From sequence record NZ_CP090684.1: DNA of 64,000 nt. One strand, 5' to 3'. The notes beneath the pieces were generated by a model. That model was given only the letters and a program-made list of their open reading frames with translations. It ran no database searches and had not been told where the DNA came from. Shown piece by piece: positions 1,690-31,250 of this stretch. Within the stretch, counting starts at the first letter, position 1, and each line of letters opens with the position of its first letter. Both the position numbers and the translations under genes were made by a program. Source of the stretch: a plasmid.

Positions 1690-1843
1690 ATCACGGCGAT
1701 CAACCATGCGGGCCGTGTGACGAAAATTTCATGTTCCGATCAACTTCGCGATGTGTCGTGGCGCTACGATCGGAACGGTGGCGGGCCCTGCCCGCTCCCA
1801 TCCACGCAGCGGGTCGCTGCCACACGGCACGATCACGCATTGG

Positions 1844-1876
1844 GCCCGGACTCATCGAGTACCGGGCTTTTTTTTG
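1844..1876 (+). terminator. Rho-independent terminator downstream of porin
   Basis: GCCCGG-(12 nt loop)-CCGGGC stem followed by a T9 run (accgggcttttttttt). Confidence 0.5.
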
Positions 1877-1888
1877 GGCGTTCGACGA

Positions 1889-2116
1889 TCACGGCCTGGA
1901 ATTAGACTGCGGGAACAGGCATGGATGCGTCTTAACATGCATGTTCGGATTACCGCAGCGATGCCCGGCGTAGTCTACCTGCTCGCCCGGCATCAGATTG
2001 GCCGGTGCCGCCTTGCGGGCGGCGGCAGTGGTATCGGAACGAGTCGATACGCAGCCCGCGTACAACGGGACGGTCAGGGCTGCGATCAAGGCGAGGCGAA
2101 TGGCGGGACGAGGCAA
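1889..2116 (-). CDS. Possible small lipoprotein (TTG start), weak call
   Basis: Track ORF 1889..2206(-). An internal TTG gives (M)PRPAIRLALIAALTVPLYAGC..., a lipobox-like LYAGC. No strong SD; could be spurious. Confidence 0.2.
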   Translation of the reverse strand: MPRPAIRLALIAALTVPLYAGCVSTRSDTTAAARKAAPANLMPGEQVDYAGHRCGNPNMHVKTHPCLFPQSNSRP

Positions 2117-2411
2117 TTTCCGGTCCGGAATGAAGGTCTGAACGACGCCGCCCGCGATCGATGCGGCTGTCGCGATCGGCACGAATGCCGCCGGCGCATC
2201 GGCCAACGGCGGGCTTCATGTTCCGCTTCCCGCTCATCGCATCCGTGACGCGAACATGACGATTGCGTCATATCGACCGAGTCCGTCCAGTACATCCCGC
2301 ACCTCGCAATCTGACGCATTTTTCATCTCGCTATCACGATCACGCACGGCTGCTTTCGCATACTGGGTCCATGGTTCGCCACCCGGCGGCCCTGATCAAG
2401 GAGAGCACTCG

Positions 2412-2696
2412 ATGAAAACGGCAAAACTCGCAGCACTGTTCGTCACCGCCACGCTGTCGCTCGGCATGGCCACGCAGGCCGCGTTCGCCCAAACGCAAAC
2501 GCAGGGCAAGTCCCGCACGCAGGTGATCAACGAACTGAAGCAGGCGCAGCACGACGGCATCGTGCCGATCAACAAGACGCAGTACCCGCCGACCGCCGAG
2601 GTCGTCGCGCGCAACAAGGAACTGCACGGGATTTCGGTCCATGGCGGCGAGAAGAAGCCGCAGACCGACAACCACGACGCCCTCGCCGCGAAGTAA
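2412..2696 (+). CDS. DUF4148-like small secreted protein
   Basis: ATG at 2412 preceded by AAGGAG; MKTAKLAALFVTATLSLGMATQAAFA signal peptide; QAQHDGIVP...YPPTAEVVARNKELH motif shared with two paralogs in the window. Confidence 0.75.
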   Translation: MKTAKLAALFVTATLSLGMATQAAFAQTQTQGKSRTQVINELKQAQHDGIVPINKTQYPPTAEVVARNKELHGISVHGGEKKPQTDNHDALAAK

Positions 2697-2778
2697 TGAA
2701 CCGCAGCCACACGGCCGCCGGCGACGCGCCGCGCGAGGCCGCCTTGCGGCGAACGCGCGGGAGTGTCCGCCCGCGCTG

Positions 2779-4185
2779 TCAGGTGCTGATGGCGGCCGGC
2801 CGTCGCGGAAAGCGCAGCCAGAAGGTCGTGCGGCGGCCCGGCTCGCTGTCGACGCCGCATTCGCCGCCGTGATTGTCCATGATAGACCGGACGATCGCGA
2901 GGCCGAGCCCCGTGCCCGACGCCGAATTGTGGCGCGACGGATCGACGCGATAAAAACGCTCGAAAATCCGCCCGACGTGCTCCGCCGCGATGCCGGGCCC
3001 CGTATCCGACACGGCGATCGTCGTCGCACCGCCCTGCTCGACGCAATCGATCGTCACGACGCTGCCGCGCGGCGCATAGGTCAGCGCATTCGACAGCAGG
3101 TTGCTCAACGCGCGCTGGTACAGCGTCAGGTCCGCATCGACCCACGCATGGCCGTCGACCTTCACCGTCACGCCCGCGTCTTCCGCAAGCGGCTCGTAGT
3201 AGCCGGCCACCCGCTCCGCCTCCTCCGCCGCGTTCAGGCGCCGCACATCGATCGACGTGCCGGCCTGCTCCGAACGCGCGAGAAACAGCATGTCCTCGAT
3301 CATTCGCGACAGCCGCTGGTATTCGTCGATGCTCGACTCGATCACGCTCCGGTATTCGTCCGCGCTGCGCGGTTGCGACAGCACGACCTGCGCGGCCGCC
3401 TGCAGGTTCGTCAGCGGCGTGCGCATGTCGTGCGCAAGATTCGACGAGAACTGGCTCAGCCGCGTGAACGATTCGTTCAGCCGCGCGAGCATCCCGTTGA
3501 ACGCATGCTCGAGCTCCTTCAGCTCGCCGGACGTATCGAGTTCCGGCAGCGGATGCGCGAGCCGGCTCGACGACATCTGCTCCGCGCGCGCCGCGAACCG
3601 CCGCAGCGGGCTCAGCCCGAGCGCGGCGATGCCGTATGCGATCGCGGCCGCAAGCACCACGCCGAACACCTCGATCACGACGATCGTATAGGCATGCGTG
3701 CGCAGCAGCAGCACGTCGGCGCTGCGATCGTACTGCACGGCGACGCGCACCACCGGCGCACCCGCGCCGGCGAGCGGCACGGTCGTCAGCAGATACTGGT
3801 GTCTTGCGCCGGGCGGGGCGATGCCGACCGGCACGCGCCCGGCGTTCGTCAACATCAGCGGCGCGTACGGACGGAAGCCGGGCGTGCCGACGAGGCGCGT
3901 ACCGGCGGCATCGAAGATCGCGAGATCCATGTTCGGATGACCGTGCAACTGGTCGATCCAGATATCGGTGTTGCGCGCGACGTCGGCCGTCGTGCGCGCC
4001 TCGGCCAGGTGTGCGCCCAATGCGGCGGAAATACCGGCCATCTGCTCGGCTGCCGTCGTTTCGACACGGTTGCTCAGCGCTTCGTACAATGCGACGCCGC
4101 TCGACGCGAGGATCACCGACGTCGACAGGATGATCAGCGCGGTCAGCCGGCCGCGCAGCGTCCGCGGCAGCAGGCGCGCGATCAT
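2779..4185 (-). CDS. czcS: Heavy-metal sensor histidine kinase (CzcS/CusS family)
   Basis: Frame of track ORF 2779..4395; likely start at [10 protein letters not shown] (ATG 4185-4183), overlapping the upstream regulator stop by ATGA. Motifs [19 protein letters not shown] (H-box) and the C-terminal HATPase G-boxes GTGLGLAIV; two TM segments flank a periplasmic domain. Confidence 0.85.
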
Positions 4186-4864
4186 GCGGCCGCGCCGCCG
4201 CGCGCTTCGAGCACGTAGCCCATGCCGCGCACCGTGTGGATCAGCTTCGGTTCGTACGCGTCGTCGATCTTCGAGCGCAGCCGGCGGATCGCCGAATCGA
4301 CGACGTTCGTGTCGCTGTTGAAGTTCATGTCCCACACCTGCGACGCGATCGTCGCGCGCGGCAGGATCTCCCCTTCGCGGCGCATCAGCAGCCACAGCAG
4401 CGCGAACTCCTTCGCGGTCAGCAGGATCGTGTCGCCCTGCCGCGTGGCCTTGCGGCGGGTCAGGTCGAGTTCGAGATCGGCCACGCGCAGCGTGTTCGAA
4501 TCGCGCGGCTGGCCGCGCCGCAGGATCGACTTGATGCGCGCGGTCAGCTCGACGAAGTCGAACGGCTTCGCGAGATAGTCGTCCGCGCCGAGCTCGAGCC
4601 CCTTCACGCGATCGCCGACGTCGTCACGGGCAGTGAGGAACAGCACGGGCGTCGATTTGCTGCGCCGCAGGTTCTGCAGCAGCGTCCAGCCGTCCTGCCC
4701 GGGCAGCATCACGTCGAGCACGAGCAGGTCGTACTCCTCCGTTTCGGCCTGGTGCTGGCCCGTGATGCCGTCCTCGACCCAGTCGACGACGTAGCCGGCC
4801 TCGGTCAGGCCCTTGCGCAGATACGCGCCCGTCTTCGGTTCATCCTCGACAATCAGAATTCGCA

Positions 4865-4865
<1 letters not shown>
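4182..4865 (-). CDS. czcR: OmpR-family heavy-metal response regulator (CzcR/CusR/CopR family)
   Basis: [11 protein letters not shown]...[14 protein letters not shown] receiver domain plus a winged-helix C-terminus ([12 protein letters not shown]...TVRGMGYVL). The track start is GTG; the ATG is one codon downstream. Stop overlaps the kinase start (ATGA). Confidence 0.9.
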
Positions 4866-8110
<3,245 letters not shown>

Positions 8111-8205
8111 TCACCGGACGGGCCGCGCGGCCGGTCACCCGGCCGACCGGAAAGCAGGCCGCATAGCGGGCCGCCAGTCGCGCCACGGCGCACGCGTATT
8201 GCTGC

Positions 8206-9681
8206 TCATTCATGTTCCGCGCTCCCCTTGCCGAGCTCCGCCTTCAGCACGAAGCTGTTCGACGCCGCGTATTCCTGGCCGGGCTGGAGCCCCTTCAGCA
8301 CTTCCGTCGCGCGTTCGTCGCGCCGCCCCGTTTCGACGGCCTGCGCGACGAAGCCCTTCGGCGAGCGCACGAACACCGACGGCGCACCGTCGACGTCCTG
8401 CAGCGCGTCGCTCGCGACCGCGATCGGCACGCCCTGCCTGCCCGCGTCGACCGACACGTTCACGAACATTCCCGGGCGCCACACGCGATCCGGGTTCGGC
8501 AGCACGACACGCGCCGGCGCGGTGCGCGTCTGCTCGCCGAGCAGCGACCCCACGTAAGCGATCGGGCCGCTCGAACGCGATTCGAACGCGGTCGCGCTCA
8601 CCGTGGCATCGCGACCGACGCGCACGTCGTTGAGCCGCTGCGCGGGCACCGCCATCTCGGCCCACACGGTCGACAGGTCGGAGATCACGAACATGCTCGC
8701 GTCGGCGGCAATCGCCTCGCCGGGTGTCGCATGCTTCTCGACGATCGTGCCCGCGAACGGCGCGCGCAGTTCATAACGGTTCAGCGCACCCGCGCCGACC
8801 GGCGCATTCAGCGCGGCGAGCTTCTGCCGCGCGTTCTGCACGGCGATCTCGGCCTCGCGCAACTGCACCTGCGCCTGCTGGTAATCCTGCTCGGCAGAAA
8901 TACGCTCCTGCCACAGCGTGCGTTCGCGTTCGTAGGTTGCGCGCGCCCCCGCCAGACGGCGCTCGGCCGTCAGCAGCTCGCTGCGGCGGTCGGCCAGATC
9001 GGTGCTCGCGATCACCGCGAGCACCTGCCCTTTCGCGACGTTCTGGCCGAGCGACACCGACACCTGCTCGACGATGCCGGCCACGCGCGGCACCACGTGC
9101 GCGGTGCGATCCTCGTTGAACTTGATCTCGCCCGGCAACTGGAACGGCGTCGCGATCTGCGCGGGGCCGGCTTTCGCGAGCGCGATCCTCGACGTCGCCA
9201 GTTGTGCGTCGGTCAGCGCGATCGCACCGTCGGCGCGCGCGAACGGGAACGACGCGGCGTCGTTGCCGGACTTCACGTCGATCGTCGCATCGAACACGTG
9301 TGGTTTCGCGATCGACTGCGCGGACACGAACTTTTGGCCGGCCGCGTCGAATCGCAACGGTTCGTGCGTGCGATCGTAGCGCACCAGCGTGCCGGACACG
9401 GTCACGCCCTGGGTCGCCGGCTTGTCGTCGACGAACGGATAGACGACGAGCCGCGCGTCGCCGGGCTTTTCCGTCATCACGATCTCGACCGACAGCTTGC
9501 CGCGCTTGAGCACGACACCGCCGCGCGCGCCGACGCCGGCGGCGTCGGTCGGCTGCGCGGTTTCGGCGGCGGTCGGCGCCGACGCGCCGCTGCCGCCCCG
9601 CGTGACGGCGAGCGCGCCAATCACGATCCCTGCGCCGCCGAGCACGGCCGCCGCAATAACGAAGATTCTGCTGCGTGACAT
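8206..9681 (-). CDS. czcB: RND membrane fusion protein (CzcB/HlyD family)
   Basis: Track ORF 8206..9870; true start MSRSRIFVIAAAVLGG (ATG ends at 9681) preceded by GGAGGA. Coiled-coil region (ELLTAERRLAGARATYERERTLWQERISAEQDYQQAQVQLREAE) and a biotin-lipoyl-like fold. Confidence 0.85.
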   Translation of the reverse strand: MSRSRIFVIAAAVLGGAGIVIGALAVTRGGSGASAPTAAETAQPTDAAGVGARGGVVLKRGKLSVEIVMTEKPGDARLVVYPFVDDKPATQGVTVSGTLVRYDRTHEPLRFDAAGQKFVSAQSIAKPHVFDATIDVKSGNDAASFPFARADGAIALTDAQLATSRIALAKAGPAQIATPFQLPGEIKFNEDRTAHVVPRVAGIVEQVSVSLGQNVAKGQVLAVIASTDLADRRSELLTAERRLAGARATYERERTLWQERISAEQDYQQAQVQLREAEIAVQNARQKLAALNAPVGAGALNRYELRAPFAGTIVEKHATPGEAIAADASMFVISDLSTVWAEMAVPAQRLNDVRVGRDATVSATAFESRSSGPIAYVGSLLGEQTRTAPARVVLPNPDRVWRPGMFVNVSVDAGRQGVPIAVASDALQDVDGAPSVFVRSPKGFVAQAVETGRRDERATEVLKGLQPGQEYAASNSFVLKAELGKGSAEHE

Positions 9682-9706
9682 GATGATCCTCCAGTAAGAG
9701 GCGCGC

Positions 9707-11014
9707 TTATTGCGCGACGGCCGCGAGCGGCGTGCCGACGAGCCGGCCGATATCGGCGCGGGCCGCATGGGCGCCGGCGAGCGCACGGACGTATTGCGAC
9801 TGGCCCTGGAACAGCGTGCGCTGCGCGTCGAGCACGTCGAGGAAGCTGAACTTCCCGAGTTCGTAGCCACGCCACATCGCGTCGAGCGCGAGGCGCGCGG
9901 CCGGCAGGATGTCGGACTTCAGCCGCTGCGCTTCCTGCTCGGCCGCCTCGAAATTCGCGTATGCCTGCGTCAACTCCAGCCGCAGGCGGGTGCGTTCGCG
10001 ATCGAGATCGGCGTTCGCGCGCTCGGCCTTGTGCGTCGCCTCGAGCAGCGCGCCCTTGTTCGTGTTGAACAGCGGAATCGGGATCGACACGCCGACCACC
10101 GCCTGGTTGTTCGGCACGCCGCCGGTGGTCACGCGCTTCACGCCGGCGCTGACCGTCACGTCCGGAATGCGCCGCGCGCGTTCGAGCGATATGGCCGCGT
10201 TCGAGCGCAGCATCTCGGCGCGCGCGACCCGCGCGAGCGGCGCATCGTCGAGTTGCGCGGTCAGCGCGGACAACGGCTCGACCGGCGGCACGGTTTCCAG
10301 GTCGCCGAGCACCGCAAGCCGGTCGTTGCGCGCCTCGCCCATCACCGCGTTCAGTTTCTCGCGCGCGACCTCGACACGGCCGCGCGCGGTCACGACTTCG
10401 ATCTGCACGCCGGCCGCCGCGACCTGCGCCTTGGTCGCCTCGACCGGCGACACCTTGCCGGCCTGCGCGCGACGCCCCGCGAGATCCGCCGAACGCGCGG
10501 CGATCGCGGCCGATTCTTCGGTCACCTGAAGCTGGCGCTGCGCGGCGAGCAGCCCGTAGAACGCGGCGATCACGTCGGCGCGCACGGCGGCGCCCTGCTC
10601 GTCGAGCGACGCGCTGGCCGCCTCCCGGCCGTACGACGCGACGTCGAGCCGTGCGCGGCGCTTGCCGCCCAACTCGATGGTCTGGTTGATCAGCGCGGTG
10701 GACGTGCGTTCGGCGCGACTGAAGCCTTCCTGCAGGAACGACACTTCGGGGTTCGGCCGCGCGCCGGCCTGCATCAGCACGCCGGCCGATGCATCGACAT
10801 CCGCGCGTGCGCCGCGCAGCGCCGGATTGTTCCGGGCCGCGACCGCGAGCGCGTCGGACAACGTCAACGACGACGCAGGAAGCGCATCGGACGGCGGTGC
10901 GCCGATCGGCGCGGCGGCGGCACCCGGGGCCGGCCCCGGCGACAGCGATGGCTGCGCATGAGCCGTCGCGGCCATCGCGAACACGATGGCCAGGGCGAGG
11001 TTGGGTTTGAGCAT
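9707..11014 (-). CDS. czcC: Outer-membrane efflux protein (CzcC/TolC family)
   Basis: Track ORF 9707..11077; start MLKPNLALAIVFAMAATAHA signal peptide (ATG ends at 11014). Duplicated TolC repeat architecture. Gene order czcC-czcB-czcA on the same strand. Confidence 0.85.
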   Translation of the reverse strand: MLKPNLALAIVFAMAATAHAQPSLSPGPAPGAAAAPIGAPPSDALPASSLTLSDALAVAARNNPALRGARADVDASAGVLMQAGARPNPEVSFLQEGFSRAERTSTALINQTIELGGKRRARLDVASYGREAASASLDEQGAAVRADVIAAFYGLLAAQRQLQVTEESAAIAARSADLAGRRAQAGKVSPVEATKAQVAAAGVQIEVVTARGRVEVAREKLNAVMGEARNDRLAVLGDLETVPPVEPLSALTAQLDDAPLARVARAEMLRSNAAISLERARRIPDVTVSAGVKRVTTGGVPNNQAVVGVSIPIPLFNTNKGALLEATHKAERANADLDRERTRLRLELTQAYANFEAAEQEAQRLKSDILPAARLALDAMWRGYELGKFSFLDVLDAQRTLFQGQSQYVRALAGAHAARADIGRLVGTPLAAVAQ

Positions 11015-11070
11015 GTTGGTCCTGCGGTAACGGTTTGTGACCGATGCTACGATCACGCCGCAGCGCGAAC

Positions 11071-11098
11071 ATGACACGGTGATGACGTTTCCGTCATC
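11071..11098. promoter_or_regulatory. Candidate response-regulator box upstream of czcC: ATGAC-N6-ATGAC direct repeat overlapping palindrome GATGACG-TTTC-CGTCATC
   Basis: Read directly: atgacacggtgatgacgtttccgtcatc, 57-84 bp upstream of the czcC ATG. The same ATGAC-N6-ATGAC architecture recurs at 23795-23826. Confidence 0.3.
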
Positions 11099-11177
11099 TT
11101 GGGAGAGTCAAGAAAGCACTTCGGAAACCCACGGCTGGGGTAAAGGTTGTGTGAAAGTCTCGCTGCCCATCGATCAT

Positions 11178-11945
11178 CAGATCTTTCTCTGGTACGCGCG
11201 CGGCGCCAGTTCCTCGGCCCTTTCCTAGCGCTCGCTGTATCGGTCGACCAGATTTGGGCCGTCGTCTCGGGTAGAGTGAACTTGACTGGCTCCTCCATAA
11301 CGTCAACGAGCCGATCGTAATGGGCCGACGGCTTCGTCCGCCCTGCTTCGTCGAATTCCGCGAACGCCTTGGCCGACGACGACTGGTTCGGGATCATCAG
11401 CATGCGCATCCAGCCTCAGAGCATGCGCATCCGGTTTACAGCGTTGAACGACTGAGATCCGCCGCCCACCTGCATCACCGCGAGCGTCTTGCCCTGCTTC
11501 GGCCGCACCGCGCCGACCGACGAAGGAATCCAGTCGATCCGTGATTTCATGATGCCGGTCATTGCGCCGTGCCGTTCCGGCGAGCACTACACTATGCCTT
11601 CCGCTCACGTCACCACCCCGCGCAACCCGGCCACCTTCGGGTGGCTCTCGGGTGCAAAATCGGACGAAGGCCGCCCACTTGGATTGAACACGCGTACCCG
11701 GCACCAATCGCTGTGAACGGCGGCGCAGCTTCCTCGACCGGCAAGCAGCTGAACAAGCGTTCATGCAGGGAGCCGTGCAGAAGCACGAGCCGGGGCGGAT
11801 GGGTCGACGGTGGCGTCGGCCGCGCCTTCCGGCACGAGGATCAGCGTGGTGTCGAACTGAGGCGGGTCGTCCAATTGTTCAGACGCGCTTGCCCTCCGCA
11901 TCGGTTACGACTCCGCCGCCTTCCTTGGTGCACGGACCTCTCTGC
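11178..11945 (-). pseudogene. arsH: Decayed inverted copy of arsC(3' end)-arsH: arsH pseudogene with three in-frame stops and frameshifts, preceded by the last ~23 codons of a Grx-type arsC
   Basis: Minus-strand translation aligns codon-by-codon with the intact arsH at 19835..20572 (...[14 protein letters not shown](R/Q)IDWIP..., ...[12 protein letters not shown](T/M)KPS...). Three in-frame stops: TGG>TGA, TGG>TAG and GGA>TGA. There is also an 8-nt deletion near the N-terminus and a 3' frameshift. At 11886-11945 the sequence tacccgcagagaggtccgtgcaccaaggaaggcggcggagtcgtaaccgatgcggagggcaagcgcgtctga mirrors the arsC end at 19790-19857. Confidence 0.7.
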
Positions 11946-12054
11946 GGGTAGGCAATCGTCGGTCAGGTCACCGGTACCGTCCGCGGTCTGCATTAACTAC
12001 CCTGGCTCACTGTCTTCGGAAGGCATGGCGGTCCCCCCTCCCATTGTTTTAACG

Positions 12055-14640
12055 TTACGTGGCAGGCTCAGCTGCCGTGGCACTCTTGTCGAAAGGCTTG
12101 TAGGCCAGCAACCGCAGCGCGTTGGCAACCACGAGCAAGGTAGACCCCTCATGGAAGATGACCGCCGTACCGATGTTCAGCCCTAGCACGGTTGCCGGAA
12201 TCAGCACCGCCACGACGCCAAGACTCATCCACAGGTTCTGCTTGATGACGCGGCTCGTACTTCTCGACAGGCCCACAGCGAACGGCAATTGCGCCAGATC
12301 GTCGGCCATCAGTGCCACGTCGGCGGTCTCCAACGCAACATCGGAGCCTGCGGCACCCATCGCGATGCCCACGGTCGCGTTAGCCATGGCGGGTCCATCA
12401 TTGACGCCGTCTCCCACCATCGCCACCTTGCCGTGCTCGGTGCGCAGTTTCTTGATCTCCTCGACCTTCTGCTCGGGCATAAGGTCTCCTTGGGCCTCGG
12501 TCAGGCCAACGGTTTGCGCAACGGCCTCGGCCACCTTCTGGCTGTCGCCGGAAATCATAATTAGCCGCTCGATGCCGAGTTTCCTGAGTTCGCCCATGAC
12601 TCGGCCAGCGACGGGGCGCGGCGTGTCCATGACGCCGATCACGCCCAGGAAGCGCGCTCCCTTGCGGATGATCATCGTCGTATGTCCGTCGGCGATGAGT
12701 TTCTTGTTGGCCTCGTCGATGTCATCAGGGACGGTTGAATCAGACAGCTCCCTGAACAGAATCGGCTTGCCGATGTGGACAGTCTCGCCCCCTAACTGAG
12801 CCCGGACACCGCGCCCGGTGATGCTTTTGACATCCACAGCCTGCGGCAGATCGGTCTTGTCTCGCAGCCGTTCCTTCGCCCCGTTGACAATCGCCGCGGC
12901 GAGCGGGTGGTCGCTGTGTTCTTCCACCGCCAGCGCCACTGCCAGCAGTTCGTGCTCAGGCACGCCTTGAGCTGGGACCACCTCGGTGAGCTTCGGCTTC
13001 CCCTCGGTCAGCGTGCCGGTCTTGTCAAAGGCAATTGAGGTTAGCGTGCCCAGGTTCTCCAAAGGCCCACCACCCTTGACCAGCACACCGCTCCGCGCGG
13101 CGCGCGCTACGCCGCTGAGAACTGCACTGGGCACTGAGATTGCGAGCGCGCAGGGGCTGGCAGCCACCAACACGGCCATCGCCCTGTAGAAGGTGTGGGA
13201 GAATGGCTCATCGATAACAACACCAGCGCACAGCAGCAGACCGACCAACACCAGCACTGATGGCACGAAGATGCGCTCGAACTTCTCGGTGAACTGCTGT
13301 GTCGGCGAGCGCTGGGCCTCCGCCTCAGTGACCATCTTGATGACGCGCGCCATCGTCGACTGATCGGCCTTTCGGGCGACCATGATATCCATGGCGCCCG
13401 CGCCGTTGATCGTGCCGGCGAAGACGCGGCTCTCAGCCGCTACGCCCTCGAAGCGCCCGATTGTGATTCGGCCATCCTCGACGGGGCGCTTGTCGACTGG
13501 AACACTCTCGCCCGTGACCGGTGCCTGATTGACGCTGGAAGTGCCAACGACCACAACACCGTCCGCAGGCAGCCGCTCGTTGGGCTTCACGACGACGACG
13601 TCGCCTACTTCCAGCTTCTCCAGTGGCACAACCTCCGTCCCGGAATCGCGCCGCACCGTGGCCGTGTCAGGTGCAAGCTTGGTTAAGGCCTCGATGGCAC
13701 GCCGGGCCCTACCCATGGCGTAGTGCTCGAGCGAATGCCCAAGGCTGAAGAGGAACAGCAACAAAGCGCCTTCTCCCCAGGAGCCCAGAGCCGCGGCACC
13801 CGCAGCCGCTACGAGCATGAGCGTGTCGATCTCGAAACGCTTGGCACGCAGGTTCTCGATGGCTTCTTGGATGGTGTAGTAGCCGCCGAAGAAGTACGAA
13901 ACCACGTAGCAGTGGGTGGACAGCCATTCAAGACCGGTGCCGCGTCGCCCCACGAGCCATCCAGCCATCAGGAAGACTCCGGACAAGCAAGCAAAGATCA
14001 GCTCGGTCTTTTCGCCGAACAACCCGCCGTGTCGATGGCTGTGCTCGCCGCCCTCGTCTTTCCCGCAAGTGTGGTTGGCTCGCTGCAGCGCACGGTGGTC
14101 ATTGGCAGCCGCCTTATGCCCTGCCGTGCCGGAATCTGCGGATGCCTTGCAAGAGCGGACCGCCGTGGTCGGCTGAACAGCCGGCGTTGCCCAATTCACA
14201 GAGATATCGAGTAAGGTCAGGCGCTGCGTGAGATCGGACTCGTCAGTGAGGGAACGGTCGTATTCGATGCGGACAACGCCGCTTGGCGATACGTCGGCCT
14301 CAATGATCCCACCGAGTGAGCGCAGCTGCTCAGCAACACGCCTGGTGGCACGCACATGCATCGGCGCATTCACTCGTCCCACAATGTGCGCGAAGCGGCC
14401 CGCCACAGCGAGCCCTTCAGACCGAATCAGCTCACGCAGCCTGCTTAGTGAGATCACGGCGGGGTCGTAGTGCACACACAACTGCGGCTCTCCTTCAGCC
14501 GCGCCAGTGATATGAGCCCCTTCAATGCCAGGCCTGTCCGCCAGCTTGTCTTGCAGGCGGCTCACGCAGCGGTCTTCGGCGCCATATATGTCCGGCAGAA
14601 CCAACGGCAGATCCAGCCGCAGCTTCTGGATGTCGCTCAT
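12055..14640 (-). CDS. P1B-4-type heavy-metal translocating P-type ATPase (CzcP/CtpD-like, SPC motif)
   Basis: Track ORF 12055..15081. Motifs: AFDKTGTLTEGKP (DKTGT), GDGVNDGPAMA, HEGSTLLVVANALRL, and TM6 ASPCALAISVP (SPC, not CPC, hence the PIB-4 subgroup). Preferred start MSDIQKL (ATG ends 14640; GGAG 6 nt upstream); alternatives at 14658 or 14652. The N-terminus carries a degenerate HMA-like domain without CxxC. Confidence 0.85.
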   Translation of the reverse strand: MSDIQKLRLDLPLVLPDIYGAEDRCVSRLQDKLADRPGIEGAHITGAAEGEPQLCVHYDPAVISLSRLRELIRSEGLAVAGRFAHIVGRVNAPMHVRATRRVAEQLRSLGGIIEADVSPSGVVRIEYDRSLTDESDLTQRLTLLDISVNWATPAVQPTTAVRSCKASADSGTAGHKAAANDHRALQRANHTCGKDEGGEHSHRHGGLFGEKTELIFACLSGVFLMAGWLVGRRGTGLEWLSTHCYVVSYFFGGYYTIQEAIENLRAKRFEIDTLMLVAAAGAAALGSWGEGALLLFLFSLGHSLEHYAMGRARRAIEALTKLAPDTATVRRDSGTEVVPLEKLEVGDVVVVKPNERLPADGVVVVGTSSVNQAPVTGESVPVDKRPVEDGRITIGRFEGVAAESRVFAGTINGAGAMDIMVARKADQSTMARVIKMVTEAEAQRSPTQQFTEKFERIFVPSVLVLVGLLLCAGVVIDEPFSHTFYRAMAVLVAASPCALAISVPSAVLSGVARAARSGVLVKGGGPLENLGTLTSIAFDKTGTLTEGKPKLTEVVPAQGVPEHELLAVALAVEEHSDHPLAAAIVNGAKERLRDKTDLPQAVDVKSITGRGVRAQLGGETVHIGKPILFRELSDSTVPDDIDEANKKLIADGHTTMIIRKGARFLGVIGVMDTPRPVAGRVMGELRKLGIERLIMISGDSQKVAEAVAQTVGLTEAQGDLMPEQKVEEIKKLRTEHGKVAMVGDGVNDGPAMANATVGIAMGAAGSDVALETADVALMADDLAQLPFAVGLSRSTSRVIKQNLWMSLGVVAVLIPATVLGLNIGTAVIFHEGSTLLVVANALRLLAYKPFDKSATAAEPAT

Positions 14641-14854
14641 GAACGGCTCCATTTTCATACAAATGGCCAGCCGGCCCGGAAGGTTCACCGGCCACCAGGG
14701 TGCTCCATCAGCAAGAGAGTCTATCAGTCCGTTCCAATCGCCGGCAAATAGCGCCGGCTGCGCTGCCCGAAGCAGATGCTCCGAGCTGAGATCAGGATAC
14801 CAATCAATCAGATAGGGGCCGACGTCGCGCGGGTCAGGACGTGAAATTCGCCAA

Positions 14855-14941
14855 CTTCCATTACGTCCAGTCTCTTCCGGTCCGTGACCCGAACGGGTTA
14901 TGGCGCCCCCCGCGTCTCGTCTAATCCCTCGCTGACAGGTT
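14855..14941. repeat. 87-bp direct repeat, copy 1 (copy 2 at 31164..31250; 86/87 identical)
   Basis: cttccattacgtccagtctcttccggtccgtgacccgaacgggttatggcgccc(c/t)ccgcgtctcgtctaatccctcgctgacaggtt occurs at both places in the same orientation, and the flanks differ completely. Confidence 0.85.
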
Positions 14942-15185
14942 GAAGGTCGGCCGGGATAAGCACTTATGCGAAGGTTCGCATATTCACGAATCCCGGCGGA
15001 CCCTCTACTAACTGTTACACGATGGTAAGTCGTTGTTTTGGTATGCACTTCCACTACGAACAGTTTGCCGCTCGCCAACATCGGAGCGCTCTAATTTTTG
15101 CCGTAGGTGCCCGCATCGCTCGAGTTTGCGCCCGACAAGGGGCCGCGGTTCGACACTATCAAATCCAGGCATTCCAATGCAGGGC

Positions 15186-15225
15186 CGAAATATCGACCGA
15201 TTTCTTTCCTGCTTTCGATATTTCG
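15186..15225. promoter_or_regulatory. Candidate ArsR operator: 11-bp inverted repeat CGAAATATCGA-N18-TCGATATTTCG ending 15 bp before the arsR ATG
   Basis: Seen in sequence. Metalloregulator operators of the ArsR/SmtB family are imperfect IRs overlapping the promoter. Confidence 0.4.
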
Positions 15226-15239
15226 ACTACTATTGAAAC

Positions 15240-15575
15240 ATGGAAACAAACCAAACCATTGCCGCCCTCGCGGCACTCGCCCACGAATCCCGGCTCGCCG
15301 TCTTTCGTGCACTCGTGCAAGCGGGGCCGGAGGGCATGCCGGCCGGGCAGATCGCCACGCTGCTGGACGTGCCGCCGTCGTCGCTTTCCTTTCATCTGAA
15401 GGAACTGGCGCATGCACAACTCGTCACCAGCCGCCAGGAAGGCCGCTTCGTCTTCTACTGCGCGAACTTCGCCACGATGAACGGCCTGTTGGCTTACCTC
15501 ACGGAGAACTGCTGCGGCGGCAATCCCTGCTCGCCTGCGGGCGCGTGTTCCCCGGTCAAGGAGCAACACTCATGA
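15240..15575 (+). CDS. arsR: ArsR/SmtB-family arsenic-responsive repressor with C-terminal Cys cluster
   Basis: wHTH (LLDVPPSSLSFHLKELAHAQLV) without the canonical ELCVCDL site; C-terminal ENCCGGNPCSPAGACSP resembles AfArsR-type As(III) sites. Confidence 0.9.
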   Translation: METNQTIAALAALAHESRLAVFRALVQAGPEGMPAGQIATLLDVPPSSLSFHLKELAHAQLVTSRQEGRFVFYCANFATMNGLLAYLTENCCGGNPCSPAGACSPVKEQHS

Positions 15576-16051
15576 AGCGCTTCCATGTGCACATCAGCGT
15601 GCCGGATCTCGTTGACAGCATCCGTTTCTATTCGGCGCTGTTCGCCGCTGAGCCGACCGTCGTCAAGAGCGACTACGCGAAATGGATGCTCGACGATCCT
15701 CGCGTCGACTTCGCGATCTCGCAGCGCGGCGCGGCGCCCGGTCTAGATCATCTTGGCGTGCAGGTCGAAAACGATGCCGAGCTGGCGGAGATGCATACGC
15801 GCTTGAACGGCGCCGCGCTGCCGGTCGACGAGCAAATCGGTACGGCGTGCTGCTACGCCCGCTCCGACAAGTACTGGACGGTCGACCCGCAAGGCATCGC
15901 ATGGGAAACGTACCAGACGCTCGGCGACGTCCCCACCTTCGGCGAATCCCGTAACGCGTCGGCGGCTGAATCGAATGCCGACGCTTCTGCTTGCTGTTCC
16001 CCTGCACGCGGCAAGCCGATCGGCGTGCCGGTGAAATCGTCCTGCTGCTGA
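15572..16051 (+). CDS. arsI: ArsI-like C-As lyase / glyoxalase (VOC) family protein
   Basis: Within track ORF 15107..16051; ATG at 15572 after AGGAG, overlapping the arsR stop (ATGA). VOC fold with the vicinal Cys pair IGTACCYARSDKYWTVDPQG, as in characterised ArsI (TCCYA motif, recalled). Confidence 0.65.
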   Translation: MKRFHVHISVPDLVDSIRFYSALFAAEPTVVKSDYAKWMLDDPRVDFAISQRGAAPGLDHLGVQVENDAELAEMHTRLNGAALPVDEQIGTACCYARSDKYWTVDPQGIAWETYQTLGDVPTFGESRNASAAESNADASACCSPARGKPIGVPVKSSCC

Positions 16052-16060
16052 GGTCCAACC

Positions 16061-16555
16061 ATGAGCGACAAGCCCTACAACGTGCTGTTCATCTGTACCG
16101 GCAATTCCGCCCGATCGATCCTGTCCGAGGGACTGATGAACCGCCTTGGCGAGGGCCGCTTCGTGGCGTACTCGGCGGGCAGTCATCCGAAAGGCGAGGT
16201 GAATCCGTTCGCGCTGCGCGAGCTGGCGCGTTGGCAATTGCCGACCGAAGGCTACCGGAGCAAGAGCTGGGACGAATTCGCGGCACCCGGCGCACCGGCG
16301 CTCGATTTCGTCTTCACCGTGTGCGACAAGGCCACCGGCGAGGTGTGCCCGATCTGGCCCGGTCAACCGATCACCGCACATTGGGGTGTGCCTGACCCGG
16401 CCGACGTCGAGGGCTCCGACGAACAGAAACAGCAGGCCATGCACGACGCCGCGCTGACGTTGAAGCGTCGTATCGACCTGCTGCTGTCATTGCCGCTCGC
16501 CAAACTCGACAACGTCGCACTGCAAAAGTCCCTGACCGAGATCGGGCAAAAGTAA
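16061..16555 (+). CDS. arsC: Arsenate reductase, LMW-PTP / thioredoxin-coupled type
   Basis: P-loop LFICTGNSARSIL (CX5R), downstream Cys (TVCDKATGEVCP) and the AHWGVPDP motif. Confidence 0.85.
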   Translation: MSDKPYNVLFICTGNSARSILSEGLMNRLGEGRFVAYSAGSHPKGEVNPFALRELARWQLPTEGYRSKSWDEFAAPGAPALDFVFTVCDKATGEVCPIWPGQPITAHWGVPDPADVEGSDEQKQQAMHDAALTLKRRIDLLLSLPLAKLDNVALQKSLTEIGQK

Positions 16556-16572
16556 CTTTGGATCGTCAACCC

Positions 16573-17067
16573 ATGACCACGAACGTACTGATCCTCTGCA
16601 CCCACAACTCGGCGCGCAGCGTGCTGTCCGAAGGGATGCTCAATCATTGGGCCGCGAAGCTCGGCAAGGACGTCCGCGCATACAGCGCCGGCAGTGCGCC
16701 GAGCGGTCGCCTCAATCCGTTCGCGCTGGAAGCGCTGACGACCGCTGGCGTCGACGTGAGCGGCTACCGCAGCAAGAGCTGGGACGAGTTCGTCGGCGAT
16801 GGTGCGCCGGAGATGCGCGTCGTCATTACGGTGTGCGACAGCGCGGCCGCCGAGACGTGCCCGTACTGGCCCGGCAGCCCCGTCAAAGTGCATTGGGGCT
16901 ACGCCGATCCGTCGAACGCGTTGGGCGGCGACGAAGGCAAGCGACTCGCCTTCGAACTCACGCGCCAGGCGATCGGCTATCGCATGCTGCAGTTGTTGGC
17001 GCTGCCGCTTGATCGCATGAGCAATGCCGAACTCCAGACGGCGTTGACCGAGATCTCGCAAAACTGA
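16573..17067 (+). CDS. arsC: Second tandem LMW-PTP-type arsenate reductase / phosphatase paralog
   Basis: Within track ORF 16558..17067 (TTG); ATG at 16573. LILCTHNSARSVL P-loop, TVCDSAAAETCP, VHWGYADP. Confidence 0.8.
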   Translation: MTTNVLILCTHNSARSVLSEGMLNHWAAKLGKDVRAYSAGSAPSGRLNPFALEALTTAGVDVSGYRSKSWDEFVGDGAPEMRVVITVCDSAAAETCPYWPGSPVKVHWGYADPSNALGGDEGKRLAFELTRQAIGYRMLQLLALPLDRMSNAELQTALTEISQN

Positions 17068-17130
17068 CCATTCGCATGGCGGTCCGCTGAACCGCGCGGC
17101 CGCCGACGACTTCAAGACTGAACCCTATCC

Positions 17131-18204
17131 ATGAACACGTCCAATGTCGCCCCGCCGGGCAAGGCCGTCGCAAAGCCTTCCATCAATTTCTTCGAACGCT
17201 ACCTCACCGTCTGGGTGGCGCTGTGCATCGTCGCCGGCATCACGCTCGGCCAGGTGCTGCCCGGCCTGTTCCAGCAGATCGGGCGGATGGAATATGCCCA
17301 GATCAATCTCCCGGTCGGGCTGCTGATTTGGGTGATGATCATCCCGATGCTGGTCAAGGTCGACTTTGGCGCGCTGCATGAAGTGCGTCAGCACGTCAAA
17401 GGCATCGGCGTCACGCTCGTCGTCAACTGGCTCGTCAAGCCATTTTCGATGGCGTTTCTCGGTTGGTTGTTCATCCGCCATCTGTTCGCGCCGATGCTGC
17501 CGACGGACCAGCTCGACAGCTACATCGCCGGCCTGATCCTGTTGGCCGCAGCACCGTGTACGGCGATGGTGTTCGTGTGGAGTCGACTGACGGGCGGCGA
17601 TCCGCTGTTCACGTTGTCGCAGGTCGCGCTGAACGACAGCATCATGGTGATCGCCTTCGCGCCACTGGTCGGCCTGCTGCTCGGCATGTCCGCAATCACG
17701 GTGCCGTGGGCGACGTTGCTTACGTCCGTCGTGCTCTACATCGTTATCCCGGTGATCATTGCGCAGATCCTGCGTAAGCGGCTGCTCGCGAATGGTCAGG
17801 CTGCATTCGATGCCGCGATGGCGAGGATCGGCCCTTGGTCGATCGCGGCGCTGCTGGCCACGCTTGTGCTGCTGTTCGCGTTCCAGGGCGAAGCGATCCT
17901 GAAGCAGCCTCTGGTGATCGCGCTGCTCGCGGTGCCGATCCTGATTCAAGTGTTCTTCAACTCGGCGCTCGCGTACTGGCTCAACCGCGCCGTAGGCGAG
18001 AAGCACAACATCGCGTGCCCGTCGGCGCTGATCGGCGCATCCAACTTCTTCGAGCTTGCCGTCGCGGCCGCGATCAGCCTGTTCGGTTTCCATTCCGGCG
18101 CGGCACTGGCTACCGTCGTCGGCGTGCTGATCGAGGTGCCGGTCATGCTGTTGGTGGTGCGCATCGTCAACCAGTCGAAGGGCTGGTACGAGTGCCGGAC
18201 CTGA
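17131..18204 (+). CDS. acr3: ACR3-family arsenite efflux permease
   Basis: 10-TM BART-superfamily profile. LILLAAAPCTAMVFVW contains the conserved Cys of Acr3. Confidence 0.9.
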   Translation: MNTSNVAPPGKAVAKPSINFFERYLTVWVALCIVAGITLGQVLPGLFQQIGRMEYAQINLPVGLLIWVMIIPMLVKVDFGALHEVRQHVKGIGVTLVVNWLVKPFSMAFLGWLFIRHLFAPMLPTDQLDSYIAGLILLAAAPCTAMVFVWSRLTGGDPLFTLSQVALNDSIMVIAFAPLVGLLLGMSAITVPWATLLTSVVLYIVIPVIIAQILRKRLLANGQAAFDAAMARIGPWSIAALLATLVLLFAFQGEAILKQPLVIALLAVPILIQVFFNSALAYWLNRAVGEKHNIACPSALIGASNFFELAVAAAISLFGFHSGAALATVVGVLIEVPVMLLVVRIVNQSKGWYECRT

Positions 18205-18205
18205 C

Positions 18206-19438
18206 ATGTCCACGCATGCACCCCGCCCGCACGCATGGCTGACGCCGTCGCTCGGGCTGACGCAGATCGTCGGCTGGGGTTCCATGTTTTACGCGTACGG
18301 CGTCCTGATGCAACCGATGCAGGACGAGCTGGGTCTGTCGAAGCCAGTCGTCGTCGGCGCCTATTCGGTGGCGCTGCTGATCTCGGGGCTGTTGTCCACG
18401 TCGGCCGGCAGCATCATCGACCGCGTCGGCGGGCGCGCCCTGATGGCGGGCGGATCGTTGCTGGCGGCGCTGATGCTTGTCTGCTTGTCACGGGTGAATA
18501 ACGTGGTCGGGCTGTATCTCGTGTGGGCCGGCATCGGCGTTGCGATGAGCGCAACTCTCTACCAGCCTGCGTTCACCGTCATCACGCAGATATTCGGTAA
18601 CGACTACCGCCGCGCGATCACGCACCTGACCTTGTTCGGCGGTTTCGCCAGCACGGTGTTCTGGCCGCTGACGCAAACGCTGTTGCAGCACGTCGGATGG
18701 CGCGACACATGGCAGCTCTATGCCGGCGCGAATCTGGCGATCTGCGTGCCCGTGCATGTCGCGCTGCCAAGTCGTTCACACGCACCGCATGGCGTGACGC
18801 CAACGCAAACGGAACAGCCGGCCGCTAACCTTGGCGCTGTCCTGCGCGACCCGGCCTTCTATCTGGTGACCGCGGCGGTCACGCTCAATGCGCTGGTGTT
18901 CGCCGCGATGTCGCTGCACATGATCGCGGTCTTGCAGGCGCATGGCATTTCCGCCGCGAACGCGGCATGGGTGGGGGCGCTGGTTGGGCCGATGCAGGTT
19001 CTCGGCCGCGTGCTGGAAACGACGATCGGCAAACGCGCGAGCACGCGCCAGGTCGGCATGGCCGCGATGGCGTTGCTGCCGCTTTCGCTGGTCCTGCTCT
19101 TTGCGTCCGGGACGTGGCTGCCCGTGTACGTTGTTTTCGCGGCGCTGTATGGCATCGGCAACGGCGTCATGACGATTGTCCGCGGTGCATTGCCTGCGGA
19201 ACTGTACGGGCGAACCGCCTATGGCGCGATCAGCGGGGCGATGGCGACGCCCGTGCAGATTGCCATCGCCGCCGGTCCGTTCGTTGCATCACTCCTGTAT
19301 GTCGCCGGGAACGGCTATCCCGGCACGCTATTGGCCCTGGCCGGCATCGGCGCGACAGGTGCGATCCTGTTCCGCTACGCGATCTTGCATTTGCGCCATC
19401 ACGCTGTCCCTCTATCGAAGCAAGGAATCTCGACATGA
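18206..19438 (+). CDS. MFS transporter embedded in the ars operon (ArsK/ArsJ-like organoarsenical or arsenite exporter candidate)
   Basis: 12-TM MFS profile, immediately after acr3 (2-nt gap), and its stop overlaps the next arsC start (ATGA). No adjacent gapdh, so ArsJ coupling is not supported. Confidence 0.7.
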   Translation: MSTHAPRPHAWLTPSLGLTQIVGWGSMFYAYGVLMQPMQDELGLSKPVVVGAYSVALLISGLLSTSAGSIIDRVGGRALMAGGSLLAALMLVCLSRVNNVVGLYLVWAGIGVAMSATLYQPAFTVITQIFGNDYRRAITHLTLFGGFASTVFWPLTQTLLQHVGWRDTWQLYAGANLAICVPVHVALPSRSHAPHGVTPTQTEQPAANLGAVLRDPAFYLVTAAVTLNALVFAAMSLHMIAVLQAHGISAANAAWVGALVGPMQVLGRVLETTIGKRASTRQVGMAAMALLPLSLVLLFASGTWLPVYVVFAALYGIGNGVMTIVRGALPAELYGRTAYGAISGAMATPVQIAIAAGPFVASLLYVAGNGYPGTLLALAGIGATGAILFRYAILHLRHHAVPLSKQGIST

Positions 19439-19857
19439 GCAACATCACGATCTATCACAACCCGGATTGCGGCACGTCGCGCAACGCGCTGGCCCTGATC
19501 CGCAACAGCGGCGAGGAGCCTGTCGTCATCGAGTATCTCAGGACGCCCCCGTCGCGGGAAACGCTGGTCAAGCTGCTGGCCGATGCCGGCCTGACCGTAC
19601 GCGAGTTACTGCGGGAGAAAGGCACGCCTTATGCGGAACTCGGTCTGGGCGATCCGAAGTGGACCGATGAGCAACTGCTCGACTTCATCGGGCAGCATCC
19701 GATCCTGATGAACCGGCCGATCGTGGTTACGCCGATCGGCACGAAGCTATGCCGGCCGTCCGAAGCCGTGCTGGATATCCTGCCGAACCCGCAGACGGGG
19801 CCTTTCACCAAGGAAGATGGCGAAGTCGTGATCGATGCGGAGGGCAAGCGTGTCTGA
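19435..19857 (+). CDS. arsC: Arsenate reductase, glutaredoxin-coupled (R773 ArsC/Spx family)
   Basis: Tail of track ORF 18967..19857; ATG at 19435 overlapping the MFS stop. [17 protein letters not shown] with catalytic Cys12. Confidence 0.85.
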
Positions 19858-20572
19858 GCAATTGAACGACATGCCGCAGCTCGACGCCACGCTGTTCCGC
19901 GTGCCGGACGCCGCTCAATTGCGGCCGGCGACACCGTCGACGCATCCGCCTCGACTCCTGCTTCTGTACGGCTCGCTGCGCGAGCGTTCGTTCAGCCGTC
20001 TGCTGGTCGAGGAAGCCGAGCATTTGCTCACGGCGATGGGGGCCGAAGTCCGTGTGTTCAATCCGAGCGGCTTGCCGCTGCCCGATGATGCGCCGGAAAG
20101 CCATCCGAAGGTGGTCGAGCTGCGCGAGCTGGTGATATGGTCGGAAGGCATGGTGTGGTGCTCGCCGGAACGACACGGCGCGATGACGGGGATCATGAAA
20201 TCGCAGATCGACTGGATTCCGTTGTCGGTCGGCGCAGTCCGGCCGACGCAGGGCAAGACGCTTGCGGTGATGCAAGTCAGCGGCGGTTCGCAGTCGTTCA
20301 ACGCCGTGAACCAGATGCGCGTGCTCGGACGCTGGATGCGCATGCTGACCATCCCGAACCAGTCGTCGGTGGCCAAGGCGTTCGCGGAATTCGACGAAGC
20401 GGGTCGGATGAAACCATCGCCCTACTACGATCGTGTTGTCGATGTCATGGAAGAGCTGGTCAAGTTCACTCTGCTGACCCGAGATATCGGCCCGTATCTG
20501 GTCGACCGGTACAGCGAGCGAAAGGAAAGCGCCGAGGAACTGTCGAAGCGCGTGAACCAGCGAAGTATCTAG
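19835..20572 (+). CDS. arsH: ArsH, NADPH-dependent FMN reductase (organoarsenical oxidase)
   Basis: [16 protein letters not shown] flavodoxin-like P-loop, ...[13 protein letters not shown].... Start ambiguous: ATG 19835, in-frame GTG 19850 or ATG 19871. It overlaps the arsC 3' end. Confidence 0.85.
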
Positions 20573-20593
20573 AATCCGGTCCAAGGAGTAAGG

Positions 20594-21022
20594 ATGGAGA
20601 TCCGCCCCGCCACTGTCGACGACCTAGCGTCGATCGAAACGCTGCTGCGTCAATGTGGCCTTCCCGTCGTTGGCGTCAGCGACCACTTGCGGAACTTCGT
20701 AGTCGCGACGGAAGGTTCAATGATGTGCGGATGCGGTGGCCTTGAGCACTATGGTGACGCCGCACTTGTGCGCTCTATTGCGGTAGCTGAACGTGCACGC
20801 GATTCTGGTCCGGGGCAACGTATCGTGTCGCGGCTCGTCGCCGAGTGTCATGCGCTACAAGTTCGGTCGCTTGTGCTGCTCACCACGACCGCGGAGCACT
20901 ATTTCACCCGTCTAGGGTTCGTGCGCGTTGCGCGTGGCGACGTAATGCCCTTGGTGTTGGCGTCGAGCCAATTCCAAGGCGTATGTCCGGGATCGGCCGT
21001 CTCGATGTTGCGAGTTCTGTAG
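20594..21022 (+). CDS. GNAT-family N-acetyltransferase at the end of the ars operon (ArsN2-like candidate)
   Basis: 142 aa with a GNAT fold pattern (acetyl-CoA binding region RIVSRLVAECHALQVRSLVLLTT). The ArsN assignment rests on position only. Confidence 0.55.
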   Translation: MEIRPATVDDLASIETLLRQCGLPVVGVSDHLRNFVVATEGSMMCGCGGLEHYGDAALVRSIAVAERARDSGPGQRIVSRLVAECHALQVRSLVLLTTTAEHYFTRLGFVRVARGDVMPLVLASSQFQGVCPGSAVSMLRVL

Positions 21023-30855: not shown

Positions 30856-31233
30856 ATGCTGGCTATGAAATTGCTCCGGACCTTCATCCTGTCGCTGCTC
30901 TGCGCGGTGCTGCCCATCAGCGGGCTGGCAGCCAGTGGCTTGACCGGTGAATGTCCGATGCAGCAAACCATGTCCATGGGCGCGGATGCCAGCATGTCCG
31001 GCGATATGCCGGGCTGCGATTTGATGAAGTCCTCGTCCGTCGATAAAGCCAAGGCCAAGAGCGTGTTCTGCAAAGTGACCGCCCAGTGTCAGTTCGGCAG
31101 CCTCTATCATCCAGCCGCCAAGACCGACATCAGCCGTCCCGCTGCGGTCGGTACGCCCGTCATCTTCCATTACGTCCAGTCTCTTCCGGTCCGTGACCCG
31201 AACGGGTTATGGCGCCCTCCGCGTCTCGTCTAA
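30856..31233 (+). CDS. Small secreted Cys/Met-rich protein; C-terminal 28 codons lie inside the 87-bp repeat
   Basis: Signal peptide MKLLRTFILSLLCAVLPISGLAA; GECPMQQTMSMGADASMSGDMPGCDLM. A TATAAT overlaps the first ATG (30852-30857), so the real start may be 30865 or the gene may be leaderless. Coding status uncertain because of the repeat. Confidence 0.4.
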   Translation: MLAMKLLRTFILSLLCAVLPISGLAASGLTGECPMQQTMSMGADASMSGDMPGCDLMKSSSVDKAKAKSVFCKVTAQCQFGSLYHPAAKTDISRPAAVGTPVIFHYVQSLPVRDPNGLWRPPRLV

Positions 31234-31250
31234 TCCCTCGCTGACAGGTT
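31164..31250. repeat. 87-bp direct repeat, copy 2 (see 14855..14941)
   Basis: 86/87 identity to copy 1; followed by hairpin CACCGCA-gt-TGCGGTG. Confidence 0.85.

Follow-up and report, generated by a model that had tools for sequence, protein, structure and literature searches.

An arsC'-arsH pseudogene between czcC and a P-type ATPase gene on a metal-resistance island of Burkholderia plasmids

Introduction

Gene remnants stranded at the junctions between the modules of mosaic resistance islands and plasmids form a general and well-known class. In this work we focused on such a locus on a plasmid (sequence record NZ_CP090684.1), of which a stretch of 64,000 nucleotides, hereafter called the window, was analysed. 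Between czcC (9707..11014, minus strand) and a gene for a P-type ATPase, the letters resemble the end of an arsenic-resistance operon, an intact example of which lies some 8 kb away in the opposite orientation. Is this a second arsH gene, a decayed copy of the resident one, or the trace of something else?

A sequence-only reading of the window had described the interval as an inverted and decayed arsC'-arsH duplicate, the relic of an earlier ars module. It had also pointed to a further arsH-like fragment upstream of the ATPase gene and to open reading frames likely to mislead automated annotation. The literature search that we carried out found no paper on this relic. The resident operon is annotated, on an essentially identical plasmid, as arsR-arsI-arsC-arsC-acr3-MFS-arsC-arsH-arsN2, and the NCBIfam models agree with this order; the arsC gene at 19435..19857, directly preceding arsH, was recovered as TIGR00014 in the model search.

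Results and discussion

A truncated and interrupted arsC'-arsH pair

Local alignment of positions 11949..11179 on the minus strand with the arsC 3' end and arsH of the resident operon (19787..20570, plus strand) gave 633 identities over 784 columns (80.7%), which is far beyond chance. The same pair scored 728 bits in blastn and appeared, in a repeat search of the window, as four inverted arms split by indels. The stretch is therefore confirmed, as far as sequence comparison can tell, as a decayed and presumably non-functional arsC'-arsH relic, i.e. a pseudogene on the minus strand (Table 1). Its location and its lesions both agree with the inverted remnant wedged between czcC and the ATPase gene that had been proposed.

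The lesions were located by a codon-aware walk of the relic against the intact resident arsH. All three premature stops noticed earlier are present (codons 102, 108 and 165), as are the 8-nt deletion and the 3' frameshift, and the walk added a fourth stop at codon 230 and a 1-nt deletion at 11699 that were absent from the earlier list. Since the 8-nt and the 1-nt deletions add up to 9 nt, together they restore the frame of arsH'.

Upstream of arsH', what is left of arsC amounts to its last 23 or so codons, as the sequence-only reading had stated. The 71 nucleotides of arsC' share 60 with 19787..19857, the 3' end of the intact gene, and homology sets in abruptly at 11949-11955, which corresponds to 19787 in the resident arsC. 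From 11950 to 12054, no arsC similarity was found above shuffled controls. A 'CRP' common to the translations had suggested by eye that homology might extend upstream of 11949, and both local and anchored DNA alignments of that part were no better than shuffles. Compared with the glutaredoxin-type ArsC family (TIGR00014 / PF03960), arsC' keeps the last ~23 codons and the stop, whereas the first ~117 codons, including the catalytic part, are gone and unrelated DNA stands in their place. The complete domain with its N-terminal catalytic region, by which TIGR00014 is recognised, is accordingly missing, and the 26-aa translation of arsC' matched no family model.

The ATG of the relic arsH lies inside the 3' end of arsC', in the same layout as in the intact operon. 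Other than the 23 arsC codons nothing of an operon remains 5' of it, neither arsR, nor a transporter gene, nor a promoter, and the context is that of a former operon.

Table 1. Position of the relic, its lesions and the adjoining features in the window
Feature	Position	Strand	Remarks
czcC upstream region	11015..11097	-	common to the czc module of B. contaminans plasmids (alignment 10950..11097)
81-nt stretch, arsH' stop region to czc-module boundary	11098..11178		no arsN2 or arsH-downstream similarity
arsH pseudogene	11179..11901	-	ATG (11901) through stop region; 82% nt identity with resident arsH
Premature stop 4	11225..11227	-	codon 230 AAG>TAG
4-nt deletion site (GCTG), 3' frameshift	11272..11273	-	relative to intact arsH
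Premature stop 3	11416..11418	-	codon 165 GGA>TGA
Premature stop 2	11587..11589	-	codon 108 TGG>TAG
Premature stop 1	11605..11607	-	codon 102 TGG>TGA
1-nt deletion site	11698..11699	-	codon-aware comparison with intact arsH
8-nt deletion site (2+6 nt)	11824..11826	-	relative to intact 19911-19920
arsC'	11879..11949	-	last ~23 codons and stop of a glutaredoxin-type arsenate reductase gene; no start codon, no catalytic N-terminal part
Junction spacer, 105 nt, ATPase stop to truncated arsC'	11950..12054		no arsC similarity above shuffles; none to flanks of ATPase relatives
Heavy-metal P-type ATPase (P1B-type, 861 aa)	12055..14640	-	TIGR01525, 566 bits; abuts truncated arsC'
Claimed arsH 3'-end-like stretch	14791..14829	-	RDVGPYLIDWYPD, 8/13 residues identical to ArsH; not counted in the relic
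Intact counterpart: arsC 3' end and resident arsH (19835..20572)	19787..20572	+	annotation of identical plasmid; TIGR02690, 418.4 bits

Relaxed constraint and relation to ArsH

In an alignment of the relic with five intact arsH genes, substitutions found only in the relic fall on codon positions 1, 2 and 3 in the numbers 23, 27 and 10. The unique changes of the intact plasmid arsH genes in the same alignment are distributed 1/1/13, 2/1/10 and 2/0/3. The changes along the relic lineage are thus not concentrated at third positions, as is expected under neutral drift. Moreover, the relic differs at 29 of the 136 columns that are invariant in 120 intact ArsH proteins, against at most 4 for any intact sequence. 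GSxRxxSxS is the flavin-phosphate-binding motif of this flavoprotein family, and the altered invariant residues include R49H and S52L in its GSLRERSFS version, and also R55C. The even spread over codon positions 1 and 2, together with the loss of so many invariant residues, identifies a true pseudogene.

The comparison with the ArsH family (NADPH-dependent FMN reductase / organoarsenical oxidase; TIGR02690, PF03358) leads to the same point. The relic is homologous over its full length to the ArsH of Burkholderia cepacia complex plasmids, but unlike them it carries four stops and three deletions and stands without promoter or upstream operon. Searched as it is, it was found by the ArsH profile as pieces in three reading frames, with E-values from 2e-33 to 0.05; no uninterrupted frame spans the four in-register stops and the 8-nt, 1-nt and 4-nt deletions. 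Even when repaired and translated in register, it scored 278.6 bits against TIGR02690 (E = 2.3e-83), below the curated cutoff of 292.25 for full-length members, compared to 418.4 for the resident copy. Homology to ArsH is certain, but the relic falls outside the functional equivalog as the model defines it. For the island this means one working arsH, not two.

The resident arsH was not the source of the relic

The word 'duplicate' implies that the relic was copied from the resident gene. An inverted duplication in situ of the resident arsC-arsH pair, with subsequent decay of one copy, has some points in its favour. The resident arsH is nominally the nearest to the relic, with a DNA identity of 82%, followed by the plasmid genes of B. 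contaminans (79.9%) and B. glumae (79.5%), a chromosomal copy (77%) and Caballeronia (74%). The third-position distance between relic and resident (0.264) is also the smallest among the distances of the relic, and the two pairs are inverted relative to each other at about 8 kb. Nevertheless, the resident arsH is itself much closer to its orthologues on other plasmids, at 90.5% for B. glumae and 88.3% for B. contaminans.

A recent paralogue would be expected to share the states derived in the resident gene, and the relic carries only 5 of these 17; the corresponding figures are 3 of 27 for the states derived in B. glumae and 5 of 25 for those derived in B. contaminans. It likewise has only 6 of the 16 states by which the resident and B. 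glumae genes are grouped together, and quartet counts of 10:12:4 do not group it with the resident. As the relic shares so few resident states and the resident is closer to the orthologues of other plasmids, the relic was not copied from the resident gene, and the term 'duplicate' has to be abandoned in this sense. A duplication would have to predate the split of these plasmid ars operons, which makes it indistinguishable from a separate acquisition. We consider such an event in situ unlikely.

The relic does belong to the plasmid type of this operon. With the B. contaminans, B. glumae and resident arsH it shares an N-terminal extension beginning MRRAS and a start buried in the 3' end of a Grx-type arsC, both of which are missing from the chromosomal copies. 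No closer intact parent was found: none of the top-scoring matches listed in a search of 5.8 billion proteins exceeded 75% with the repaired translation, ArsH of Burkholderia and Ralstonia heading the list, and the best plasmid DNA outside the island reached 79.8%. On sequence grounds, the relic is what is left of another ars operon, older and separate, of the same plasmid-borne family, and not a recent duplicate made in situ. The 'earlier ars module' of the sequence-only reading fits this origin well.

The decayed state is common to all copies of the island

The 2.5 kb around the relic are 100% identical in six complete plasmids, those of Burkholderia sp. IDO3, B. aenigmatica, B. vietnamiensis, two B. 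multivorans and sp. MBR-1. The longest ORF of the relic has entries in 371 blocks of the assembly collection, and in all 24 contigs that were read (24/24) its surroundings are alike, ars operon - ATPase - relic - czcCBA, within which the exact ATPase was likewise always found. In a base-by-base comparison over 12100..11000, six of seven contigs were identical to the window. Assembly GCA_902833265.1 has an additional 4-nt deletion at 11532-11535, a further disabling change in a descendant, as drift would produce. In plasmid pMBR01, ISBvi4 is inserted in the junction spacer (11995-11998), and another IS insertion lies within the ATPase 3' end in one contig. A 180-aa member of the cluster of relic ORFs looked like a less decayed intermediate; it results from a downstream frameshift and has no fewer lesions.

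The relic is therefore fixed in every island copy seen, and it occupies the interval from the ATPase stop to the czc promoter region. Both facts would suit a remnant kept for a new non-coding role, as 3' UTR or terminator of the ATPase gene, as insulator, or as an upstream element of the czcCBA promoter. However, we found no promoter-like or terminator-like site in 10900-12200, and no Rfam family reached its threshold for the relic region. In B. contaminans, where there is no relic, the homologous czc module functions with the same 83 nt of upstream sequence, and the extra 4-nt deletion and an IS insertion have been tolerated. Finally, copies of the relic are no more alike than the 31 kb of DNA around them (zero mismatches across 9874-40937 with the IDO3 plasmid), so that their identity reflects recent spread and not selection. 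We regard such a role as very unlikely. Very unlikely, too, is a reading that invokes serial replacement of ars modules, takes 14791-14829 for a genuine but very decayed third arsH end, and makes the relic a 3' tail of the ATPase mRNA that regulates or insulates the czcCBA promoter. As to sequencing or assembly errors that would have put stops and frameshifts into an intact second arsH, this reading is practically ruled out, since identical lesions recur in the six complete plasmids, filed under five species names, and in another six contigs of NCBI, JGI and ENA assemblies, and since errors creating stops or indels do not explain replacement changes at 25 invariant residues.

Junctions and the probable order of events

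Both ends of the relic are sharp. At the 3' side, the czc module, made up of a porin, a two-component system and czcABC, matches that of a B. contaminans plasmid exactly as far as 11097, and the 81 nt from there to the arsH' stop region had no match; between its czcC and the next ATPase gene, a different one, that plasmid has unrelated debris. No remnant of arsN2 was detected 3' of the relic in comparisons with the resident, B. contaminans or B. glumae sequences. At the other end, the nearest relatives of the ATPase belong to Roseateles, Pelomonas and Acidovorax (80-82% amino acid identity), whereas the relic is nearest to Burkholderia plasmid arsH. The DNA flanking the ATPase relatives in 36 genome loci showed no similarity to the window, and neither an IS end nor a repeat, which could have told the mechanism of recombination, was seen at the junctions of the relic.

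Taken together, we consider it very probable that the relic is a non-functional remnant of the distal part of a plasmid-type ars operon, which was truncated by recombination, drifted, and then spread with the island. In this scenario the distal end of such an operon (...arsC(Grx)-arsH) would once have stood on the minus strand upstream of the czcCBA promoter. Recombination may then have replaced everything 5' of arsC codon ~118 with foreign DNA bearing the P-type ATPase, which would have deprived arsC'-arsH of its promoter and of any intact gene 5' of it. Neutral drift could subsequently have produced the four stops, the three deletions and the many replacement changes, and this decayed state would already have been reached when the metal-resistance island spread among plasmids of the Burkholderia cepacia complex. 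Today the relic is probably inert and would do no more than take up space between the 3' end of the ATPase gene and the czc promoter.

The order of these events, and the arrival of the ATPase as the cause of the truncation, are what we infer, as the ancestral arrangement (an intact ars operon beside this czc module, or this ATPase without the relic) was not found in the contexts examined. That the older module was overwritten while the czc and ATPase genes were assembled, as the sequence-only reading had it, is plausible in view of the sharp junctions at both ends and of ATPase relatives outside Burkholderia. The relic resembles other gene remnants at module junctions of mosaic resistance islands in being truncated at a sharp junction, fixed in the descendants and mis-called, without any notable difference. 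It is a genuine scar of recombination, of an ordinary kind, on a metal-resistance island that is widespread in Burkholderia. It raises no new biological question; its value lies in annotation and in the reconstruction of how the island was assembled, for which it marks the junction of Burkholderia-type ars DNA with a Roseateles/Pelomonas-related ATPase.

Consequences for annotation

Two open reading frames of the relic had been expected to mislead automated callers. This holds for the one at 11053..11409, which is present in public collections as an ORF at 11056..11409 (minus strand) of 116 or 118 aa, the 116-aa form on 329 contigs; for the other, at 11303..11764, no exact sequence exists in the collection. 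One 114-aa copy of the former is named 'NADPH-dependent FMN reductase'. A 114-aa ORF on one contig, which might be taken for a stop-free version of the relic, is the product of the additional 4-nt deletion. On the opposite strand, a 63-aa ORF at 11037..11228 is a RefSeq 'hypothetical protein' on 97 contigs, and other callers report ORFs of 46, 48 and 114 aa, as well as a 1008-aa ATPase extended to an ATG at 15081. A RefSeq locus tag of NZ_CP028965.1 (DCN14_RS36600) that is missing between RS36595 and RS36605 in the PLSDB table, from which pseudogenes are omitted, suggests that PGAP already marks a pseudogene here. The relic seeds spurious protein entries in public databases, and therefore matters for annotation hygiene.

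With regard to the ATPase itself, its ORF on the minus strand (12055-15081) remains open beyond the RefSeq start (14640), for a further 441 nt in the upstream direction. No Pfam domain matched the N-terminal ~240 residues of the 861-aa product, so that no HMA metal-binding domain was detected.

A supposed third arsH fragment and other sequences near the junctions

The sequence-only reading had pointed to another arsH 3'-end-like stretch at 14790-14850. Its translation (Table 1) gave a tblastn E-value of 0.16 within the window, and the ArsH profile search did not report it. A 73-column DNA alignment of the region with arsH reached a z-score of ~8.5 against mononucleotide shuffles. However, under three scoring schemes the scores of this candidate were equalled or beaten by those of arsH against unrelated parts of the window, and the similarity is therefore not beyond chance. 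The first 19 nt of the alignment, furthermore, belong to a 93-nt repeat that is a fragment of another gene. The resemblance of 14791-14829 to arsH is thus probably due to chance, and the claim was not upheld.

The repeat in question is direct (14849-14941 and 31158-31250, 97% identity). Its second copy consists of the last 76 nt of a conserved hypothetical gene (30865..31233), which sits upstream of a TolC/adaptor/RND copper-type operon, and of 17 nt downstream of it. Since this copy is the 3' end of that gene, 14849-14941 is another gene fragment, stranded between the ATPase gene and arsR, and forms a second junction remnant 3 kb from the relic. The 93-nt piece also occurs on many replicons of Burkholderia and Paraburkholderia, where its conservation is 73-94%.

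Next to it, at 14941-15008, lies an imperfect palindrome of 68 nt with a predicted hairpin of -21 kcal/mol (z = -4.9). Copies with 76-83% identity occur in unannotated gaps of Cupriavidus necator pENH92, of Ralstonia syzygii and of Paraburkholderia replicons, and the element looks like a small repeated palindromic element situated at a module junction. A Tn3-type terminal repeat was considered at 14963-14994 and rejected, because the sequence is part of this single hairpin element and not one of a pair.

A second palindrome, ATGAC-N6-GTCAT (ATGACGGAAACGTCAT), is found at 11082-11097 on the minus strand, about 70 nt upstream of czcC and at the very edge of the czc homology. It may be a binding box of the adjacent IrlR-type response regulator.

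In the resident operon, homology with the B. contaminans plasmid begins at 15202, 38 nt before arsR, and continues at 87% identity as far as the arsH stop (20570); arsN2 is only ~72% identical, whereas the B. glumae plasmid stays at 90% through arsN2 (module 15202-21011). Given this drop beyond the arsH stop in B. contaminans, the 3' end of arsH seems to serve repeatedly as the limit of a module.

In the first 25 kb, the window differs from plasmid p1 of Burkholderia sp. IDO3 by 163 mismatches, all of which fall within 693-9873 and are dense across the czc sensor/regulator and czcA/czcB genes. This segment looks, from the clustering of the mismatches, like an allelic recombination patch inside the czc module. 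Further along, at ~40937 and ~43578, an IS1071-type Tn3-family transposase and an IS21 element are present in the IDO3 plasmid and missing from the window, and the two sequences part beyond ~47846.
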